From: Escherichia phage FEC14
Length of the DNA stretch: 64,000 bases
Strand: one strand, 5' to 3'
Sequence record: MG383452
Shown: positions 54,498 through 63,171 of the stretch, piece after piece
Position numbering within the stretch: the first letter of the stretch is position 1
How the letters are laid out: every line of letters starts with the position of its first letter
Position numbers and translations under genes: made by a program
The notes under the pieces: model-generated
Seen by the model: the letters and a program-made list of their open reading frames with translations, nothing else
Database searches by the model: none
What the model was told of the DNA's origin: nothing

Positions 54498-54842
54498 ATG
54501 AAACTCAATAAGATTCTTCTGGTGTGTGCTCTGGCTTTCTCTACCACTGCATGCTCTACCCTTCTGGACGTTGCGTCTACTGTTGACCTCGATGCGCCGA
54601 CGTTCACCAATCAGCAAGCGGTGAATAAGATGGAAGACACCATCAAGGCACATGCGGCTTTGGACAACACCGCTCCTGGTCCGTTGCAAACTGTTTGCAA
54701 TTATGATGATTCCATCCAGGAAGATGAAACCTATCACTGCACCACTTACGTGAAGGAATCTTCTGTGGTTCTGTATGCAGATTGCACAGAAGAGCAATGC
54801 ACCGCAACTGGTTATGATCAAGTGGAGAAGTCTGATGAATAA
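54498..54842 (+). CDS. putative lipoprotein
   Basis: MKLNKILLVCALAFSTTAC: signal peptide ending in Cys with a lipobox-like context. Confidence 0.45.
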   Translation: MKLNKILLVCALAFSTTACSTLLDVASTVDLDAPTFTNQQAVNKMEDTIKAHAALDNTAPGPLQTVCNYDDSIQEDETYHCTTYVKESSVVLYADCTEEQCTATGYDQVEKSDE

Positions 54843-55617
54843 TCATGTTGGTCTGTATGATGCCAATTCTAAAATCGGTGGAATGTATCGTATCCTGGTA
54901 GACGTAGACTTGACTTTGGTTGATAGCCTCTCCCCTTGGGTGGATTGGTTTAATATTTCCAATTCAAAAGCTGCTGCGGAAAACATGGGTTGCCATGATT
55001 ATCCCAATGATTTCCAGCGTATCACCAAAGAGTGCTATATGGCTCATGCTGGTGATTTGGCGATCCTCATGCGGGAACGCGCTCACCCAGCATGGTTGAC
55101 ACGCCGTGTGTTTGTTGCTGGTCAATGGATGGATTCACCTACAGGACGTGATCCTATGGATTGGTGGCGCATGCCGGACCTGTATGCCAAGATGAACCCG
55201 CTTCCAGGCGCTTACGAGTTCCTGGTGAATCTGAAGAAGATCCTTCTCGAAGACTTTGAAAATGTTGAATTGATCGCAGTATCTAAGTGTGAGCCAGAAC
55301 ACGAGCGCAGCAAGCGCCAGTTTGTCTATGACAAGTTCCCTGGCATCTTCAACGGGTTCGTCAGCACCGACGAAAAGCATCTTTTGGCAGGTGATGTTTT
55401 AATTGATGATAACCCGAAATACGTTGAACCCTGTGCGATGAACAATATTTTTGTCATCTTTGTTCCCCAGGGAAATTATGAAAAACTGGATCTTTCGAAC
55501 TCGGAAGATATGCTTTATATTAAACCAGTCGAAGGCCAGAACCACTTCGACTTCCTGAACCGCAATATTGTCGAAGTGGTGAACCGCCTGATTGGCCATT
55601 ATCAATACGTCCATTGA
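54835..55617 (+). CDS. HAD-superfamily hydrolase-like protein (possible nucleotidase)
   Basis: ILVDVDLTLVD matches HAD motif I (DxDxT). ATG overlaps the upstream stop (ATGAATAA). Confidence 0.4.
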   Translation: MNNHVGLYDANSKIGGMYRILVDVDLTLVDSLSPWVDWFNISNSKAAAENMGCHDYPNDFQRITKECYMAHAGDLAILMRERAHPAWLTRRVFVAGQWMDSPTGRDPMDWWRMPDLYAKMNPLPGAYEFLVNLKKILLEDFENVELIAVSKCEPEHERSKRQFVYDKFPGIFNGFVSTDEKHLLAGDVLIDDNPKYVEPCAMNNIFVIFVPQGNYEKLDLSNSEDMLYIKPVEGQNHFDFLNRNIVEVVNRLIGHYQYVH

Positions 55618-55627
55618 GGAGGACATC

Positions 55628-55933
55628 GTGCAAGAACAATCCAAGTTTGGGGAAACCCCAGACAAGCGTTCCGGTGATAGCGATATGGATGGCGTTATTA
55701 TCCATGTGAACAACTTCATTCGTAAACAAACCACACCCACTTCCGTTGGTGCGGCGCTGGAGTTAAAGCGTGTTCTGATAGAAAACGGTATGGCACCAGA
55801 TGACGATGAAATTTTCTATAACTTCGACGACCAGTATAAAGTGAAGTTTGTAGAAAACGATCGCCCACAGGTTGCTGTTTTCTGGTCTCCCTGGTTGGGC
55901 GGTGTGAGCTGGCGTATTGAGGAAGATGCATAA
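55628..55933 (+). CDS. hypothetical protein (GTG start)
   Basis: GAGGAGGA RBS 6 nt upstream of GTG; the track ORF begins at a non-ATG codon at 55592. Confidence 0.4.
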   Translation: MQEQSKFGETPDKRSGDSDMDGVIIHVNNFIRKQTTPTSVGAALELKRVLIENGMAPDDDEIFYNFDDQYKVKFVENDRPQVAVFWSPWLGGVSWRIEEDA

Positions 55934-56838
55934 TGGCTAAAATAATTGTAGTGAAAGGAACAAGTGGCGTGGGCAAGGGTACGAGAGTAGTCCAGTTCAT
56001 CGAATGGCTCCGCACTAAGCTGGAGCCTACTGAACTCACCTACACCATTGGTGACAAGACGCGCCCATTCGGCCTGAAATTCGAAGAGCTGAAGTTAATC
56101 TTCGTCGGCCAGTATACTGTGTCCAACAAATCCGGTCTGGCTTCCTGGACTTCCATGGATGCTATTCATGCTGCCACAGGCTCGGGTGATATCGCCCGTG
56201 ATCTGGTCAAAGGCTGGCTGGCTCAGGGTTACACTTTGGTGTGCGAGGGTGAACCCCTCATGCTATCGGATAAATGGCGTCCTGAATGGATGTTCAAGAA
56301 CTATCCGATTGAATCTCTGGCGTTGCTTTATTTTGCATACCCAGACCGCTATCAGTATGATGCGCGCATCCGTGGTCGCTCTGGTAAGGAAGCGGGGGAC
56401 TCCGGCTGGTCACGCAACGAATCTTACTCCAAGGAGTTTGAGAAGTCGAAGACTGAAATGCTGGCGCTGGGTTGGGAAGTGGTGGTCAATGATTACAGCG
56501 GTCAAGACGTGTTGTATCGCCAATCGTCTACAAACACTCAAGAATTCAAAACAGGAAATGATAGCGAATTAGCCATGATGCCGTTTGATGCACCTTTGTG
56601 GGTGATTGGCAACGCTATTCATCATCAAATGCGTGGTGAGTTTCACGCCATGGGTCTGGACATCAAAGATTTCTACGGATTCTGTGAAACTGACCCAATG
56701 ACGCGTGAAGTCGGTGGGGATGATCCTCTAGCGCATCGAGTCCCTGAGAAGGCGACCAAATCTAAAACCAAGGCGAGCGCCAAGGGAGAGGTAACAAAGT
56801 CCTCTGTATCCCTTCTCGGCCTGTTGAGTAAGGGTTAG
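55933..56838 (+). CDS. P-loop kinase-like protein (candidate DNA/nucleotide kinase)
   Basis: Walker A VKGTSGVGKGT near the N-terminus; 301 aa; GAGGAAGA RBS. Confidence 0.55.
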   Translation: MAKIIVVKGTSGVGKGTRVVQFIEWLRTKLEPTELTYTIGDKTRPFGLKFEELKLIFVGQYTVSNKSGLASWTSMDAIHAATGSGDIARDLVKGWLAQGYTLVCEGEPLMLSDKWRPEWMFKNYPIESLALLYFAYPDRYQYDARIRGRSGKEAGDSGWSRNESYSKEFEKSKTEMLALGWEVVVNDYSGQDVLYRQSSTNTQEFKTGNDSELAMMPFDAPLWVIGNAIHHQMRGEFHAMGLDIKDFYGFCETDPMTREVGGDDPLAHRVPEKATKSKTKASAKGEVTKSSVSLLGLLSKG

Positions 56839-56840
56839 AA

Positions 56841-57044
56841 ATGAAACAGATGTCTAAATATTTTGTGTTCGTCGGATTGGTGATGTGTATCACAGCTGTG
56901 CTTGTCGGTGTCATGAAATATTTGGGCATCGTTGAGTTGGATTCAACCGAAATATTGAACGTTTACGCGTTATATTATTTGGGGGGTGCTATCTTATTAA
57001 CGCCTTTCGTCTATAACATAATTCAGAGTTTCAAAAGGAATTAA
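56841..57044 (+). CDS. small membrane protein
   Basis: 67 aa, mostly hydrophobic (two predicted helices). Confidence 0.45.
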   Translation: MKQMSKYFVFVGLVMCITAVLVGVMKYLGIVELDSTEILNVYALYYLGGAILLTPFVYNIIQSFKRN

Positions 57045-57045
57045 A

Positions 57046-57432
57046 ATGAAAATCCTCATTCCACGCAACGTTGTCGCTGTTGCTATTGATTACCGTGGTG
57101 ATGCGAAGATGATTAACGCTGTCCGTTATTATCCGGAACAGAATAAAATCGTCCCACAATTTCAACTGAATACCAATCCTTCTTCTAAGGATTTCGGTTC
57201 TTGGCGTCAGGTGGGTTTGGCTCGTACCCAAGTCAATGCCCAGCATTTTATTTCCGAAAAGACGAAAACCGCCAAGCAAATTTGGTTGGTGACGAATGAT
57301 CGTCGTTTCCTGCCTATCTGGTCTCTGGGACAGCCCGTAGTAAGCCCCGAAGAAATTCAGCTGGCTCCCGAAGCTGAGCCTGAAGTTGTTTCTCCTGTAG
57401 AGGAAGCGAAAGATGAAAATCAAGCAGGTTGA
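57046..57432 (+). CDS. hypothetical protein
   Basis: 128-aa ORF, AAAGGAA RBS. Confidence 0.5.
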   Translation: MKILIPRNVVAVAIDYRGDAKMINAVRYYPEQNKIVPQFQLNTNPSSKDFGSWRQVGLARTQVNAQHFISEKTKTAKQIWLVTNDRRFLPIWSLGQPVVSPEEIQLAPEAEPEVVSPVEEAKDENQAG

Positions 57433-57598
57433 TTTTATCTTCATGATGTTGATGTTCGTTATCTTTACGGTTTCGCTGGTCGGCGTCATGGTCACAGAAG
57501 GGGTGCAACAGCGCCCATTCTTGGTGATATGTCCTGTATCGATCGCCACTTTCTTCTATCTGGCGTTCCGTGTTGAACTCGGGAGTAAAATCGGATGA
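57413..57598 (+). CDS. small membrane protein
   Basis: 61 aa, hydrophobic; GAGGAAG RBS. Confidence 0.45.
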   Translation: MKIKQVDFIFMMLMFVIFTVSLVGVMVTEGVQQRPFLVICPVSIATFFYLAFRVELGSKIG

Positions 57599-58830
57599 TA
57601 CACATTTCTAAAATGCCGCAGGGATATAAAGCCCCTGAAAAATGGAAATACCCGATTGATCTGGCAGTAGATTATCGTAAGCCAGAAAATCGCATGTACC
57701 TGCTCAAGGCATGGGTGGAGGCGCTATCCTACACTGAAGAGCATAACCAGCAAGTCCGTCTGATGGATTATGCCATAGAGGTTACAGAAGGCATCACACA
57801 GCTCGAGAAGATCGAGCGCAAGATTTGGATGGCCTTTTTGTGGGGTTGTTGCTATAATGGGATTGGACCATGGACAATTTACAGTGAATTTCCTGTACCC
57901 CCACAATCTCCGAAAGAGTTTCAGCGATTTTCTGATTGGTATAACCTGAACTTTGATCGTATGCGCTTCGATACAGATTGTCGTTATCGTAAGTCGAAGA
58001 TGATTCCGTGCGTTCAGTCCTATATCGATTGGTTGGGTGGTAAAACCCAAATGGATTCTTTTCGTTGGATGTTGGAATGCACTACCAAGGAAGACCAGTT
58101 CACTGAACTGTGGAATACGGCGATGTCATGGAAATACTTCGGTCGCCTGAGCGCATGGAACTTCCTGGAAGCCCTGAACATGGTCTTCGGTAACATATGG
58201 GATATAGACGTCCCTGGTTTCATGTTGCGTGACCGTGATGGTAGCGAATCCAATCGTAACGGCGCGGCATTCTTATCCAACCGTGATGATTGGGTGACCA
58301 AGCACGGGAAGAAAAAGATCAACGGTTGTCCTATTACAGACGAAGAATGTGATATACTCGAAACCGACCTTGAGAAAGCGTTTCAGGAATGCGTTGAAGA
58401 GTTTGGCCACATCACGTTTATCAATCGTCTGAACTTTGAGACCTCCGGTGCTTGTTGGCTGAAGAAATTCTTCCGACTGAAGAATACCCGTTACATCGGG
58501 TGGGACGCCGAGCGTACATGGGACGAGATCGATTATATGGAACGTATTTGGCCTGAATACTCCTGTAAGGCATTATGGGAAGCCCGTTCACTCTGGCTAC
58601 CAGATACCCTGTTGTGCGAAAAAGCTCCTGCAGGGCACGTTCCTGGCGTCCAGAAGTGGAAGATGCCTGTGTTCTTTGAGACGGGTGTTCCTCTACATAT
58701 ATGGCATTTACAGCAGGGTACGCGTTGGGAACCATCTGAGGTTTACACTAATCTGAAAATGCCCGTCCGAAAGATAGAGGACAATCCGAAGTCGACCAGT
58801 GTAAACCTCATGTCTTTGTTGAAGCGCTGA
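57595..58830 (+). CDS. hypothetical protein (411 aa), candidate DNA-modification enzyme
   Basis: Large Trp/Cys-rich ORF two genes downstream of the P-loop kinase. I see no motif; the function is a guess from context only. Confidence 0.45.
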   Translation: MIHISKMPQGYKAPEKWKYPIDLAVDYRKPENRMYLLKAWVEALSYTEEHNQQVRLMDYAIEVTEGITQLEKIERKIWMAFLWGCCYNGIGPWTIYSEFPVPPQSPKEFQRFSDWYNLNFDRMRFDTDCRYRKSKMIPCVQSYIDWLGGKTQMDSFRWMLECTTKEDQFTELWNTAMSWKYFGRLSAWNFLEALNMVFGNIWDIDVPGFMLRDRDGSESNRNGAAFLSNRDDWVTKHGKKKINGCPITDEECDILETDLEKAFQECVEEFGHITFINRLNFETSGACWLKKFFRLKNTRYIGWDAERTWDEIDYMERIWPEYSCKALWEARSLWLPDTLLCEKAPAGHVPGVQKWKMPVFFETGVPLHIWHLQQGTRWEPSEVYTNLKMPVRKIEDNPKSTSVNLMSLLKR

Positions 58831-58866: not shown

Positions 58867-59034
58867 ATGTTACAAGATCTGTTGGTGTACGCGCTTCCTG
58901 GCGTTGTTGTCGGCTTCGTAGCTGGCGCTCTGGTCTTCCGTAAACACGCGCAAGACGGTGAAGTGATTGTTCAGAAGGGTAAAGACATCCTGGAACAAAT
59001 CGAAGCCAAACTGGACGAGCTGAAGAAAAAGTAA
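58867..59034 (+). CDS. small membrane protein (about 55 aa)
   Basis: My translation gives MLQDLLVYALPGVVVGFVAGALVF... followed by a charged tail; below ORF-track cutoff. Confidence 0.35.
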   Translation: MLQDLLVYALPGVVVGFVAGALVFRKHAQDGEVIVQKGKDILEQIEAKLDELKKK

Positions 59035-59050
59035 TCTGATTGCGATTGCG

Positions 59051-59100
59051 TTCTTCAATAAAGGGGAATGGGTTATTATTAGCCCGTTCCCCTTTCTTTT
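59051..59100 (+). promoter_or_regulatory. composite terminator-promoter (TTCTTCAATAAA box, hairpin with -10 TATTAT in the loop, T-tract)
   Basis: cgTTCTTCaataaaggggaatgggtTATTATtagcccgttcccctttcttttt; 17-nt spacing between TTCTTC and TATTAT. Confidence 0.4.
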
Positions 59101-59115
59101 TGCAAGGATTGATTT

Positions 59116-59307
59116 ATGACACCTCAATACAAAATATTGGTCACCAGCCGTTGTTATGCTTATGGACAGGGTGAAGCAATATCAGTACACACAGTTGTAG
59201 TTGATTTTGAAAACAAAGAACAAGCAGATTTGGCATTCTATAATATGCAGCAGAGCACGGCTCCTGCCGATATTGGCGTTAAACAAGTTTATACGAAATT
59301 ATACTGA
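59116..59307 (+). CDS. hypothetical protein
   Basis: 63-aa ORF, AAGGA RBS. Confidence 0.45.
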   Translation: MTPQYKILVTSRCYAYGQGEAISVHTVVVDFENKEQADLAFYNMQQSTAPADIGVKQVYTKLY

Positions 59308-59540: not shown

Positions 59541-59923
59541 AGCGCCCCGAATACAAACAATATTTGTACGATCTGTTCATGAAAGAAACAGACGGCGTGT
59601 TACATCCTAAGAAAGCGACTATTGTTAAATTGCATTCTGAAGGTGATTTGTCTATAGCATATATCCGAAAAGAACTCGATTTGATGGGAATCGAATACGA
59701 AGACCACATCACGGATACACGTGCTTTAAAAAGAGAAACAGCAATCGTTCTTCATACCGTTGCAACAATTATGCATCGCCACCATGTTTCTTTTGACGAT
59801 GCAATAACTCCACAGTACCACGAAGAGCGCTGGGGACTGTTGTTGCAAAACGGTGCCAATCCCGAGCACAAAGATCAACTCCTTGGAATGACCAAGGCTC
59901 AACTTGTGGATGGTGTGTTATGA
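59537..59923 (+). CDS. hypothetical protein
   Basis: 128-aa ORF, GGAGGG RBS; ATGA overlap with the upstream stop. Confidence 0.5.
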   Translation: MKRPEYKQYLYDLFMKETDGVLHPKKATIVKLHSEGDLSIAYIRKELDLMGIEYEDHITDTRALKRETAIVLHTVATIMHRHHVSFDDAITPQYHEERWGLLLQNGANPEHKDQLLGMTKAQLVDGVL

Positions 59924-61029
59924 TCTACCTCCTGTTTGGTGTGCCACTGATACTAGCCATCCTGTTTGTGGTCTACCACCGCAAGACCCATGAGCCGAAA
60001 GAGACTCTGATGGCGACCGCGATTGTAGTGGTGCTGTCCTGTCTTATCCAGGCGGGAGCATACGCTGCATTTTCCCTGGGTAGTTCGGGAGATGTTGAAA
60101 TTTTGAATGGGTACGTTACTGACAAGCAACGAAATAAGGTGGGTTGTAGCCATTCTTATGAATGTATGTGCTATTACACAACTTCTTGCTCTGGTTCAGG
60201 AAATAACCGATCTTGTACACAAACGCGTCATTGCAGCACATGCTATGAGCACTCTTATGACGTTGATTGGGACGTATTAACAACCGTCGGTGATCTGAGC
60301 ATTGACCGTATTGATCGTCAGGGTACTACAGAGCCTCCGCGTTGGGCACAAGTTAAAATCGGGGAACCTGCGGCACGTGAACATTCATATATGAATTATG
60401 TGCTGGGCAACAAAGATTCATTATTCTCTAAATCTGACCAGCAATTCGCCGAGAAGTTCAAAGAGCATATCCCTTCATATCCGAGGGTGTATGATTATTA
60501 CCGAGTAACTCGTGTTCTGAATATGTCAGGGATGGACATTCCTGTTGATTACTGGAATGATTATCTGAACAATACTCTGAAAACATTAGGTGCTTCACGT
60601 CAAGTTAATATCGTTTGGGTTGTGACTTCTGGCCAGCCTGTTGAATATTTTCAGGGACTTCTATATGCATGGTCTGGCGGTAAAAAGAACGATGTTATTG
60701 TAGTCACCGATATTTCAAAGGATATGAAAATTAATTGGGGTAAGTCTACGTCATTTGCCGACGGCATGAACAACATGGAACTCCATTCTCGTAACGGACT
60801 TTCATTGACTGGGAAACCAATGGGCATATCAGTATTCCAAGAAGTTGCAGTCAATATAAGCAAAGGCTATAACCGCGTTGAAATGAAGGAAATGGATTAT
60901 CTGAAATGGCGTGACCTCAAGACATGGGAAGTGATTATCGTCGTTTTATTAGGTTGTGTTCCGTTTACCGCAATTTTCATATTAGGCCATATGCAGTACA
61001 ATGGTCGCACTTACAAACGTTTGTTTTAA
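59920..61029 (+). CDS. membrane protein with Cys-rich extracytoplasmic domain
   Basis: Hydrophobic segments at both ends (LLFGVPLILAILFVV... and ...VIIVVLLGCVPFTAIFILG) and a Cys-rich stretch CSHSYECMCYYTTSCSGSGNNRSCTQTRHCSTCYEH. Confidence 0.5.
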   Translation: MIYLLFGVPLILAILFVVYHRKTHEPKETLMATAIVVVLSCLIQAGAYAAFSLGSSGDVEILNGYVTDKQRNKVGCSHSYECMCYYTTSCSGSGNNRSCTQTRHCSTCYEHSYDVDWDVLTTVGDLSIDRIDRQGTTEPPRWAQVKIGEPAAREHSYMNYVLGNKDSLFSKSDQQFAEKFKEHIPSYPRVYDYYRVTRVLNMSGMDIPVDYWNDYLNNTLKTLGASRQVNIVWVVTSGQPVEYFQGLLYAWSGGKKNDVIVVTDISKDMKINWGKSTSFADGMNNMELHSRNGLSLTGKPMGISVFQEVAVNISKGYNRVEMKEMDYLKWRDLKTWEVIIVVLLGCVPFTAIFILGHMQYNGRTYKRLF

Positions 61030-61044
61030 CAAGAGGAAGTAAAG

Positions 61045-61614
61045 ATGTCGCAGCGTAAAGGTATTTCAATTGGTTGGATCATCGGTTTGGCGATTCTGGC
61101 TTTTGTTGTAATCTGTGTTGGTAGTTCCGTCAGTTATTTCAACGACTTCAACCGCACTGAGCAGCAGGTCAAGAAGTTCAACAAAGACTCCGAGAACTAC
61201 CTGAGCAACTACACGCTCAAAGTTCAGGAAACGGCGCAGATTCCTGACATGTACAAAGACGGCCTGAAGGAAGTGATCAAAGGTACATTCGAAGGGCGTT
61301 ATGGCGCTGATGGTTCCAAGGCTGTGATGCAGTGGATCCAGGAACAGAACATTCAGTTCGATTCCAGCCTGTACAAAGAGATCCAGGTTGTCATCAGCTC
61401 AGGCCGCGATGAGTTCCGTATCAGCCAGACCAAGAAGCTGGATATCTGTGCGATGTACGAGACCAAGCTGGCTCAGTTCCCTGGTTCGTTGATTGCTGGC
61501 GTGTTTGGATACCCGCGCATCGATCTTGACAAGACCTGCCAGGTGGTGAGCGATACCCGTACCCAGGCTGCGTTCGACGCCGGAATTCAGAAACCGATCA
61601 GCTTTAAAGGCTAA
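61045..61614 (+). CDS. LemA-like membrane protein
   Basis: N-terminal TM helix; C-terminal YETKLAQFPGSLIAGVFGYP resembles, from memory, the conserved C-terminal motif of the LemA family. Confidence 0.45.
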   Translation: MSQRKGISIGWIIGLAILAFVVICVGSSVSYFNDFNRTEQQVKKFNKDSENYLSNYTLKVQETAQIPDMYKDGLKEVIKGTFEGRYGADGSKAVMQWIQEQNIQFDSSLYKEIQVVISSGRDEFRISQTKKLDICAMYETKLAQFPGSLIAGVFGYPRIDLDKTCQVVSDTRTQAAFDAGIQKPISFKG

Positions 61615-61663: not shown

Positions 61664-61861
61664 ATGCCCACTGATAAATTTAGCTCTGTGTACACGACGC
61701 CTGCCAAGGAAACTTTGGTGAGCTTAGACCCCAGGGGAGTGGTGATAAAGCAGGTTGGGAGTGACGACAACGGGCGTCTTTATGACACCATTCTGTTGGA
61801 CATTGAATCTGCAAAGCATTTGCATGCTGTCCTTGGTGAAATTCTTAACTTAAAAGGCTGA
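61664..61861 (+). CDS. hypothetical protein
   Basis: 65-aa ORF. Confidence 0.45.
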   Translation: MPTDKFSSVYTTPAKETLVSLDPRGVVIKQVGSDDNGRLYDTILLDIESAKHLHAVLGEILNLKG

Positions 61862-61865
61862 TATC

Positions 61866-62294
61866 ATGAGCGTGAAACTGACTGAAGAAACTGCGTTGAC
61901 TTTGGTCCAACAGCAGATGTTCCTCGACGAAGTGGTTATCTCTGCGATCAAGCAGGGGATCATCCGTGACGACACACTGATCAACCGCCCGGAGATGATC
62001 CATCACCTGGTGGTGTGCCTGGGTGAAGCCAATCACCCTCGCAAGAAGATCGTGTTGTTCACTGATGGTGTGATTCATCCGAGCGGGAACTGCGCGTTCT
62101 TGGATGTGGTTGAACATCCGAACACGAAGGGTAAAGAGATCAAGACCTCTGTTCCGGTGACCCCATACACTGAGGGTGTTGACCAGCTGTCTTGGTTTGA
62201 GACGATCAACACCATCTATGTGATGGCGGTGGGTGGTCGACCTGTCCAAGACCTGCGCGGCGCTATTAAACCAGAGCCGAAAACTGAAGTCTAA
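61866..62294 (+). CDS. hypothetical protein
   Basis: 142-aa ORF. Confidence 0.5.
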   Translation: MSVKLTEETALTLVQQQMFLDEVVISAIKQGIIRDDTLINRPEMIHHLVVCLGEANHPRKKIVLFTDGVIHPSGNCAFLDVVEHPNTKGKEIKTSVPVTPYTEGVDQLSWFETINTIYVMAVGGRPVQDLRGAIKPEPKTEV

Positions 62295-62344: not shown

Positions 62345-62728
62345 ATGGACAGGAACATGACAGACAAGCCAAGAAAGATTGCGATTGTTGGAGCCGGACT
62401 GGGCTCTCGTACTATGGCCATTATCCTTCAAGAAAAGTTGAAAGGTGTTGAAGTAGAATGTATCAGTGTAGACGATATTCCTAAACGTCGTTGTGAACCA
62501 GGTGAACGCATGATAATTTGTGATGATCTGGTAGAAAGTGAACGCAAAACATTGGTATCTCAAGCGGTGGCTCAGTTACGGAAGGCAGATATTTCGTATT
62601 GTGAAGCAGAAGCCGATTACAGGGACATAATTGCGTCACAACGTTATCAAAAGCCGCCGCGCCTATATGGAGCCGCCCAACATAAACGTCAGGCTAAGAA
62701 ATATAAAAATCGGAGTAAACGAAAATGA
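62345..62728 (+). CDS. hypothetical protein with N-terminal GxGxxG-like motif
   Basis: KIAIVGAGLGS near the N-terminus, but the protein is too short for a full Rossmann domain. Start could be the second ATG at 62357. Confidence 0.4.
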   Translation: MDRNMTDKPRKIAIVGAGLGSRTMAIILQEKLKGVEVECISVDDIPKRRCEPGERMIICDDLVESERKTLVSQAVAQLRKADISYCEAEADYRDIIASQRYQKPPRLYGAAQHKRQAKKYKNRSKRK

Positions 62729-63171
62729 CTACTCAAAAACCAACTTATGAGGAATTGGCCACTGCGTTGATCCACATGGATGATGCCTTCCAAGATCTCT
62801 TTGGCCAAGTATGCTCTAATCCAGTGATGAATGCTTGGGGCAAGCCCGTTAACTTTGCTGTTATGAACAAACACCGCGAACAGGCAAGTTCAACTATTAG
62901 CAATTTGCGTCAAACGATGGATGTAAAACAACCAAGCATCCAACGGTATCTTGAAAACTTCGATGAGTATTCTTTCAAAGACCTTCTGTTCAAAGATCTA
63001 GTCGAGCAAGAGCAACGCAGACAGAGTAAGAACTGCTCTGAAGTACAATCTTCTGATGAAATTCGCCAGAACATAGAACAAGAATTCGACAATGCATACG
63101 ATCCTATCGGTTTGGCTGTTATGATCGTAAAAGCTCTGTCGTATGCATCAAAAGGAGAAACAAATGTCTAA
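62725..63171 (+). CDS. hypothetical protein
   Basis: 148-aa ORF, GGAG RBS; ATGA overlap. Confidence 0.5.
   Translation: MTTQKPTYEELATALIHMDDAFQDLFGQVCSNPVMNAWGKPVNFAVMNKHREQASSTISNLRQTMDVKQPSIQRYLENFDEYSFKDLLFKDLVEQEQRRQSKNCSEVQSSDEIRQNIEQEFDNAYDPIGLAVMIVKALSYASKGETNV

Follow-up and report, generated by a model that had tools for sequence, protein, structure and literature searches.

A Putative LemA/TPM Membrane Module in Escherichia Phage FEC14 and Other Large Phages

The Gene Pair

Escherichia phage FEC14 (sequence record MG383452) contains two adjacent genes for predicted membrane proteins. They are found in a stretch of 64,000 nucleotides (nt), here called the window, which was analysed as a whole. 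Gene A is an open reading frame (ORF) of 369 amino acids (aa) and gene B one of 189 aa, with a spacer of 15 nt between them (Table 1). The pair very probably represents a phage-specific, highly divergent LemA/TPM module of the inner membrane. Few bacterial membrane-protein families of obscure function are as widespread as LemA and TPM.

The window comes from a Kuttervirus-like phage of the Ackermannviridae. Its DNA between 59500 and 62300 is 88-94% identical to that of the Salmonella phages Se-G, SilasIsHot, EP75, and others.

Table 1. Coordinates of the gene pair, its predicted domains, and nearby signals (TM, transmembrane).
Feature	Position	Strand	Description
A, partner	59920-61029	+	369 aa; predicted to have 3 TM segments, a Cys-rich beta domain, and a TPM-fold domain; phrog_2087
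A start codon			Overlaps the stop codon of the preceding 128-aa gene (ATGA)
A N-terminal TM hairpin	59920-60078 (aa 1-19, 35-53)	+	Hydropathy; model helices 7-20 and 26-54; short basic cytoplasmic loop
A beta-rich Cys domain	60088-60393 (aa 57-158)	+	Strands in the model
A Cys cluster	60145-60252	+	Seven Cys within aa 76-108 (C76, C82, C84, C90, C99, C105, C108), with H78 and H111
A TPM-fold alpha/beta domain	60514-60909 (aa ~199-330)	+	Predicted; boundaries taken from model secondary structure; contains W-x-G-G-K-K-N-D-V
A C-terminal TM anchor	60922-60990 (aa ~335-357)	+	Hydropathy aa 338-356; model helix 335-357; short basic cytoplasmic tail
Shine-Dalgarno-like AAGAGGAAG	61031-61039	+	Inside the A-B spacer; read from the sequence
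B, LemA-like	61045-61614	+	189 aa; predicted single TM segment with the N terminus inside, and periplasmic helical domain; phrog_1383, E = 5.8e-86
B TM helix	61063-61119 (aa 7-25)	+	Hydropathy; one hydrophobic segment in B
B LemA-homologous helical region	61126-61527 (aa ~28-161)	+	Range of the profile alignment; ends with YETKLAQFPGSLIAGVFGYP
B motif YETKLAQFPGSLIAGVFGYP	61456-61515 (aa 138-157)	+	Aligns to the LemA C-terminal motif YNTAIKKFPGVIFAKMFGFE in profile alignments
Terminator-like hairpin	59060-59095	+	16-bp stem and T-run

Protein B and LemA

Neither protein is recognised by direct comparison with known families. When the window A and B proteins are searched directly against Pfam, NCBIfam, and PADLOC, neither LemA nor TPM is matched, even at E ≤ 1. 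The relationship of the pair to LemA and TPM is visible only through family profiles or predicted structure.

For B, 94 homologues were gathered and 61 of them aligned; the alignment of bona fide LemA proteins (PF04011) consists of 31 sequences. Comparison of the two profiles with hhalign gives a probability of 96.4% (E = 1.4e-9, 143 columns), or 87.7% (E = 3.4e-6, 130 columns) when the TM helix is left out. A reversed LemA profile and eight column-shuffled LemA profiles, used as controls, reach 0.1-0.3%, so the resemblance between B and LemA goes beyond chance. When the B-family profile is run against all PDB sequences with hmmsearch, the best match is 2ETD, the LemA protein of Thermotoga (E = 0.0017), which is collinear with it over 130 positions including the C-terminal motif. 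Scanned one at a time against Pfam, members of the B family match PF04011 more often than any other family (7/61), always below threshold and at best with E = 0.0016.

The same relationship appears in earlier records. An independent HHpred analysis in Supplementary Table S2 of a 2024 study (PMC10892097) assigns "lemA protein" to gp34, the orthologue of B in phage ChubbyThor, with a value of 0.999, and in UniRef the Taipeivirus orthologues of B carry the name "LemA family protein".

B also has the architecture of a LemA protein: about 190 aa, one N-terminal TM segment, and a C-terminal domain predicted to be extracytoplasmic. The helices of its structural model follow a long-short-short-long pattern. 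The motifs that are invariant in LemA (QLQRRxDLIPNL, ENYPxLK, and GTENRI) are not kept in B. The C-terminal motif (YN..FP..A..fGF) alone is recognisable in window B, where the profile alignments place YETKLAQFPGSLIAGVFGYP on YNTAIKKFPGVIFAKMFGFE, and the family consensus keeps only Y138, G155, and P157. Fold searches with the model of B do not recover LemA, and a HMMER scan of 1.84 billion representative proteins with the B profile finds 1,439 proteins without reaching canonical LemA.

A first-pass annotation of the sequence had proposed both the N-terminal TM helix and the LemA-like C-terminal stretch, and the present analysis agrees with it on each. It had also held that the lack of a LemA profile hit would count against the idea. 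There is no such hit at the Pfam threshold, whereas profile-profile comparison provides one. B thus stays below the gathering threshold of PF04011 while being homologous to bona fide LemA, at the profile level, over its helical domain. Judged from its sequence, B is a remote LemA homologue that forms a discrete, divergent clade, and by the Pfam criterion it lies outside PF04011.

Two other resemblances of B were noted. Matches to PADLOC LeoBC (E = 0.0013) and to DUF948 (3/61 members) fall on the TM segment and first helix, and were judged compositional and set aside. In the TM helix, the residues IGWII (61069-61083, aa 9-13) are those of f-MIGWII, the N-terminal peptide of Listeria LemA that is presented by H2-M3. 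This is probably a coincidence between hydrophobic TM segments.

Protein A and the TPM Fold

The family of A comprises 493 homologues at E ≤ 0.001, and counts of conserved residues are given over an alignment of 61 sequences. An AlphaFold2 (AF2) model of A, with a confidence score (pLDDT) of 89, consists of a TM hairpin, a beta-rich domain, an alpha/beta domain, and a C-terminal TM helix. According to this model, A carries the TPM alpha/beta fold. TPM was the family that had been suggested for testing as the LemA partner. The neighbour of B had been described as a Cys-rich protein with two TM segments, one at each end; the Cys-rich part and the hydrophobic ends are present, but the number of segments is three.

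The architecture of TPM proteins is matched as well, since the domain that is predicted to be extracytoplasmic is followed directly by a TM segment (aa 338-356). Single-member Pfam scans of the A family find PF04536 most often (13/61), again below threshold throughout, with E = 1.8e-4 at best. Supplementary Table S2 of PMC10892097 lists BA41/TPM_phosphatase, with values of 0.92-0.97, for FrontPhageNews gp36 and ChubbyThor gp33. Comparison with a shallow alignment of five bacterial TPM sequences by hhalign is not significant (3.4%, E = 0.013), although the expected beta-alpha-beta core is aligned. A search of PDB sequences with the A-family profile returns nothing significant.

Some TPM features are lacking. 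The E-V-G-Y-G-L-E-G..P-D loop and the Gly-rich C-terminal tail of LemA-linked bacterial TPM proteins are absent from the consensus of phage A. The motif W-x-G-G-K-K-N-D-V is conserved in the phage family. The phosphatase or nucleotidase activity of the TPM family is itself disputed in the literature.

The beta-rich Cys domain of A has no consistent match in Pfam or among PDB sequences. Two of its cysteines, C76 and C82, are invariant in the family, and the other five of the cluster are kept in 52-58 of the 61 sequences; H78 and H111 are conserved.

Membrane Topology and Disulfide Bonds

The loop between the first two helices of A, the C-terminal tail of A (mean charge +1.8), and the N-terminal tail of B (mean +1.4) are all net basic across the families. 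The basic loop and tails place both large domains, by prediction, in the periplasm. The C-terminal domain of LemA is likewise described as extracytoplasmic in the literature.

The pattern of cysteines is consistent with such a location. C135 and C165 of B occur together in 35 sequences and are jointly missing from 25, while 1 sequence has only one of the two; judging by this co-variation, they probably form a disulfide bond. In A, C84 and C105 are lost together in 6 sequences, C90 and C99 in 4, and C108 with H78 and H111 in 3, which belong to the GAP32-like branch. This co-loss suggests disulfides between C84 and C105 and between C90 and C99, although sequences that are related do not count as independent observations.

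Gene Linkage and Distribution

Evidence that A and B belong together is provided by their linkage in distant phages. A lies directly upstream of B in ICP1, the T4-like Aeromonas phage PX29, Erwinia phage Ea35-70, an Acinetobacter Saclayvirus, Pectobacterium phage CBB, Sinorhizobium phage phiM7, Pseudomonas phage HRDY3, Se-G, and a Yersinia phage. Bacillus phage G departs from this, with B first, then one small gene, then A. All 80 loci found in IMG/VR with the B profile have A upstream on the same strand, within 150 nt in 72 of them.

The reverse search gives a similar picture. The A profile finds 26 loci in 185,579 species genomes; B is adjacent in 20, the contig end cuts 2, and A stands alone in 4. 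The solitary loci (L108, L116, L119, and L120) look chromosomal: one adjoins nuoJ/K/L-like genes, two are near Ser/Thr kinases in high-GC, Myxococcota-like sequences, and the remaining one is in a low-GC metagenome-assembled genome labelled Rickettsiales. Because solitary A genes occur in such contexts, the A family is not exclusive to phages.

The pair is widely spread. It is found in ~485-500 of 50,697 phage records and in ~1,400 protein clusters, including ICP1, Vi01/CBA120-like phages, RaK2-like jumbo phages, and Bacillus phage G, and in the phage collection A and B are nearly equal in number for each host genus. Across phages of Enterobacteria, Vibrio, Acinetobacter, Sinorhizobium, Aeromonas, and Bacillus, identities of 35-45% and invariant residues are maintained.

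The genes that flank the pair show no homology between the phages compared, so the unit consists of exactly two genes. For this reason a three-gene module was rejected, which would have included the "putative metallopeptidase" of CBB and upstream genes of similar size in ICP1, Ea35-70, and the Acinetobacter phage. The CBB protein is in fact an Rv2179c-like 3'-5' exoribonuclease.

In one metagenomic protein of 553 aa (P0386, L124:1012-2673), a complete A is fused in-frame to a complete B by a short linker that preserves the topology. It is either a Rosetta-stone fusion or the product of a lost stop codon. As a singleton, on a contig of 9.5 kb, it is taken as weak support.

None of the phages examined has the pair in a structural block; the genes around it serve replication or nucleotide metabolism or are small and of early type. 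The pair would thus be expressed with early or middle genes rather than virion genes. The Achromobacter and Variovorax copies may be prophage-borne or chromosomal, and their neighbours mostly lack Pfam matches, apart from RecA and an MscS-like gene. In CBB/GAP32-type jumbo phages (CBB, L007 614-1756) the pair lies two genes downstream of a homologue of TelA (PF05816), a toxic-anion-resistance protein associated with membrane stress, and the exoribonuclease gene lies between them.

Comparison with Known Systems

The closest counterpart is the bacterial LemA-TPM operon. In the three genomes examined (Thermotoga, Neobacillus, and Carboxydocella), a PF04011 gene is followed by a PF04536 gene, with the stop of one abutting the start of the other. 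This bears out the idea, raised in the first-pass annotation, that bacterial LemA genes are paired with a membrane partner. It extends to the phages, where B always adjoins the TPM-fold gene A, but in the opposite order: TPM-like then LemA-like in phages, LemA then TPM in bacteria.

As in the bacterial operon, for instance that of Thermotoga TM0961 (2ETD) and its downstream neighbour, the phage genes are adjacent, co-oriented, and tightly spaced. B shares with bacterial LemA a length of ~190 aa, a single TM segment with the N terminus inside, and a helical ectodomain ending in Y-x6-FP-x9-G-[FY]. A shares with the bacterial TPM protein a TPM-fold ectodomain followed by a TM anchor, and the ectodomains of both genes are predicted to be extracytoplasmic.

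The LemA-linked TPM partners of bacteria consist of a signal peptide, the TPM domain, a TM segment, and a Gly-rich tail. Phage A has a TM hairpin in place of the cleavable signal peptide, an additional beta domain of ~100 aa with 7 Cys, and a tail that is short and basic. Unlike in bacterial LemA and TPM, the signature motifs are largely lost, and neither phage protein reaches the Pfam thresholds.

MamQ, a LemA family protein of magnetotactic bacteria, also has an N-terminal TM segment and a LemA-type helical domain that faces the non-cytoplasmic side. It has been described as the sole LemA member tied to a process, which is membrane biogenesis or remodelling. Unlike phage B, MamQ is a recognisable LemA member encoded on the magnetosome island, with no TPM partner reported in the literature read, and no membrane organelle is known in Kuttervirus infection. 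More generally, LemA-like domains have been described as membrane-proximal scaffolds formed by four-helix bundles, and one of the seven genes that the minimal cell JCVI-syn3A requires in order to divide normally is a LemA gene.

In Bacillus subtilis, the PspA-associated proteins YdjG and YdjH, membrane proteins with zinc-ribbon and TPM domains, similarly bring a Cys-cluster module and a TPM domain to the membrane. They belong to an envelope-stress context, and the TPM domain has been proposed to be a chaperone-like assembly factor. In the phage, by contrast, a single polypeptide carries both the Cys-rich and the TPM part, which are predicted to be periplasmic, and the cysteines co-vary as in disulfides, with no clear zinc-ribbon signature. 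No PspA or band-7 gene adjoins the pair in the window.

Among phage proteins, T4 Imm, Sp, and RIIA/RIIB are also associated with the inner membrane or face the periplasm and are made before the late phase, and in Kuttervirus rIIA/rIIB follow shortly after the pair. The T4 proteins protect the envelope of the infected cell or exclude other phages. They have no relationship to the pair in sequence or fold, so the likeness is one of functional analogy only.

Possible Functions

In the explanation favoured here, B would be a LemA-like helical protein with a type-II anchor. A, held in the membrane by its TM hairpin and C-terminal TM segment, would display a disulfide-bonded Cys-rich beta domain and a TPM-fold domain. 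The two proteins are most likely complexed on the outer face of the host cytoplasmic membrane, and their linkage implies that they act together there. By analogy with MamQ and with TPM domains, proposed to be chaperone-like factors that assemble membrane complexes, the module may maintain or remodel the host inner membrane, or a membrane complex within it. More speculatively, the infected cell could thereby be kept energised and intact until programmed lysis. We hold this mechanism tentatively, at somewhat less than an even chance, while the explanation as a whole may equally be right or wrong.

A role in the envelope or inner membrane is mildly favoured over the other roles proposed, because phages with unrelated hosts and entry machineries have kept the module and because it descends from a cellular housekeeping pair. 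A bolder form of the idea seems unlikely. It would make the pair an autonomous viral membrane machine, in which a LemA-like/TPM-like complex on the periplasmic face reseals, remodels, or re-organises the host inner membrane or its complexes after infection. Its carriers would be large virulent phages, from T5-like phages to megaphages, and the Cys-rich beta domain would be the phage-specific part that recognises the target. If this were so, ICP1 or Kuttervirus would offer the first genetic and biochemical handle on the LemA/TPM system in any organism.

Superinfection exclusion and lysis timing had been put forward in the first-pass annotation beside envelope remodelling. A periplasm-facing pair could alter the outer face of the inner membrane and block the DNA of later phages, as a functional analogue of T4 Imm and Sp. 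The predicted location of both large domains would fit this, as would the position among early or middle genes next to rIIA/rIIB, and phage membrane proteins without an assigned function often turn out to act in exclusion. As a rule, however, exclusion genes evolve fast and have a narrow distribution, and this pair keeps its identity and invariant residues across phages with unrelated entry machineries. A genes also stand alone in the chromosomal-looking Myxococcota-like and Rickettsiales-like genomes, and a Vi01-like genome has a different gene, at another site, annotated as a "superinfection exclusion protein". Exclusion is therefore rather improbable, membrane maintenance being preferred because of the conservation across phages with unrelated hosts and entry devices. 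Lysis control is given slightly less weight still. Here B would be an i-spanin-like, holin-like, or pore-forming protein and A its regulator, setting the timing or inhibition of lysis together with rIIA/rIIB, which lie ~2.4 kb downstream of the pair in relatives. The topology of B does resemble that of i-spanins and holin T, with a TM segment whose N terminus is inside and a periplasmic helical domain; the Vi01 record gives the A orthologue the gene name "host lysis protein"; and Phyre2 matched the ChubbyThor orthologue of B to the pore-forming CAMP factor of group B streptococcus (5H6I) with 100% confidence (PMC10892097, Table S2). An i-spanin and an endolysin are nevertheless annotated elsewhere in the Vi01-like genome. 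The window ORF list contains no lipobox-bearing o-spanin ORF within or beside B, so that B fits a two-component i-spanin in topology but not in its neighbour, which is a TPM protein with three TM segments. Pfam matches to holins and spanins are sporadic noise in single members, and a literature search gave no source for the Vi01 label. Homology to the cellular LemA/TPM pair also argues against a lysis role. In ICP1, PX29, CBB, and the Acinetobacter phage the module is not near lysis genes, and on these genomic positions membrane maintenance is favoured over lysis control.

The remaining alternatives concern what the proteins are. In RefSeq and PHROGs, B is a virion structural protein: phrog_1383 is classed under "head and packaging", and the name is attached to Vi01_204, to Klebsiella phage 0507-KN2-1, and to many RefSeq orthologues. 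The name may go back to an early virion proteome of ViI, but its origin could not be traced in the literature, and the phiD3 proteome paper is uninformative. The orthologues ORF194/195 are not among the 39 virion proteins of LIMEstone1 confirmed by mass spectrometry, and gp96/97 are absent from the virion proteome of CsCl-purified Sajous1. B has a membrane anchor and LemA homology, and its gene is outside the structural block and always paired with that of a protein with three TM segments. The labels "major capsid protein" and "lipoprotein" on the same family are plainly propagated errors. Of all the alternatives, a virion role is the least credible. Scarcely better placed is the view that a helical membrane protein and a generic alpha/beta domain resemble LemA and TPM here through convergence or chance, and that the pair is an unrelated phage-specific system. 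It would account for the sub-threshold Pfam scores of both proteins, the failure of the fold searches and of the large HMMER scan to reach LemA from B, and the insignificant hhalign result for A. The reading of the pair as a divergent LemA/TPM module is preferred to it.

Naming and Significance

Parts of this identification are already on record, in the LemA names of UniRef and in the HHpred entries of the 2024 supplement (PMC10892097), which its main text does not mention. In the literature searched, the pair is nowhere described as a LemA/TPM module, nor are its obligate linkage, the extra Cys-rich domain, and the inverted gene order. The same is true of how widely it occurs, from T5-like to jumbo phages and phage G.

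The identification corrects the misleading labels "virion structural protein", "major capsid protein", "lipoprotein", and "host lysis protein". It also offers phage systems that are easily manipulated, in which a loss-of-function phenotype could reveal the role of LemA and TPM. Vi01/CBA120-like phages are therapeutic candidates. If the function were exclusion or lysis control, it would be relevant to phage-therapy cocktails containing Kuttervirus.

Genomic Setting

Because of the terminator-like hairpin, the upstream transcription unit probably ends at 59060-59095, and the unit that contains A and B would then begin near 59116. In the LIMEstone1 annotation, terminators are placed at the corresponding position and behind the gene that follows B. 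The operon prediction for a Vi01-like phage in Table S2 of PMC10892097 groups the pair with its small neighbours and stops before rIIA. A scan for sigma-70 promoters found 19 against 16.3 expected from shuffled sequence; as this is no better than the shuffles, no promoter is claimed.

Upstream of the pair is the thymidine-hypermodification cluster typical of ViI-type phages (55933-56838 and 57595-58830, also 54775-55617). Pfam matches identify a 5-hydroxymethyldeoxyuridine (5-hmdU) DNA kinase (PF18747, E = 2.5e-150) and an amino-acid:DNA transferase (PF18724, E = 1.8e-57), and an NT5C-like nucleotidase precedes both. In relatives, the kinase is labelled "guanylate kinase" and the transferase "hypothetical protein".

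Three predicted small membrane proteins are interleaved with these DNA-modification genes, at 56841-57044 (67 aa), 57413-57598 (61 aa), and 58867-59034 (55 aa). Each has 1-2 predicted TM segments, as had been noted before, and all are conserved in Ackermannviridae; the ORF at 57413 overlaps both of its neighbours. The suggestion that they form a functional group with the pair is not supported. The 5-hmdU kinase and transferase genes and the strong terminator hairpin intervene, and there is no co-conservation across phages. Non-homologous small proteins with two TM segments also flank the pair in Aeromonas PX29 (upstream) and in the Acinetobacter phage (downstream).

Downstream of B, a 65-aa ORF (61664-61861) is named "adenylyl-sulfate kinase" in RefSeq relatives, for which it is far too short, and a 142-aa ORF (61866-62294) is named "rIIB lysis inhibitor" in Yersinia phage CAU_YEP3. 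Both names look mis-propagated, as Pfam offers no match in support of either. They are followed by members of two phage-specific families: DUF7231 (62345-62728, 127 aa) and DUF7181 (62725-63171, 148 aa). The first has a weak N-terminal Rossmann/GxGxxG-like match to Pyr_redox_2 and is called "NADH dehydrogenase-like" from HHpred in PMC10892097.

A record of Enterococcus phage Efm 3-10 (OR844942.1, 111 kb) contains an A-like protein 99.2% identical to that of this Kuttervirus gene, which suggests that the record is mislabelled, contaminated, or chimeric.

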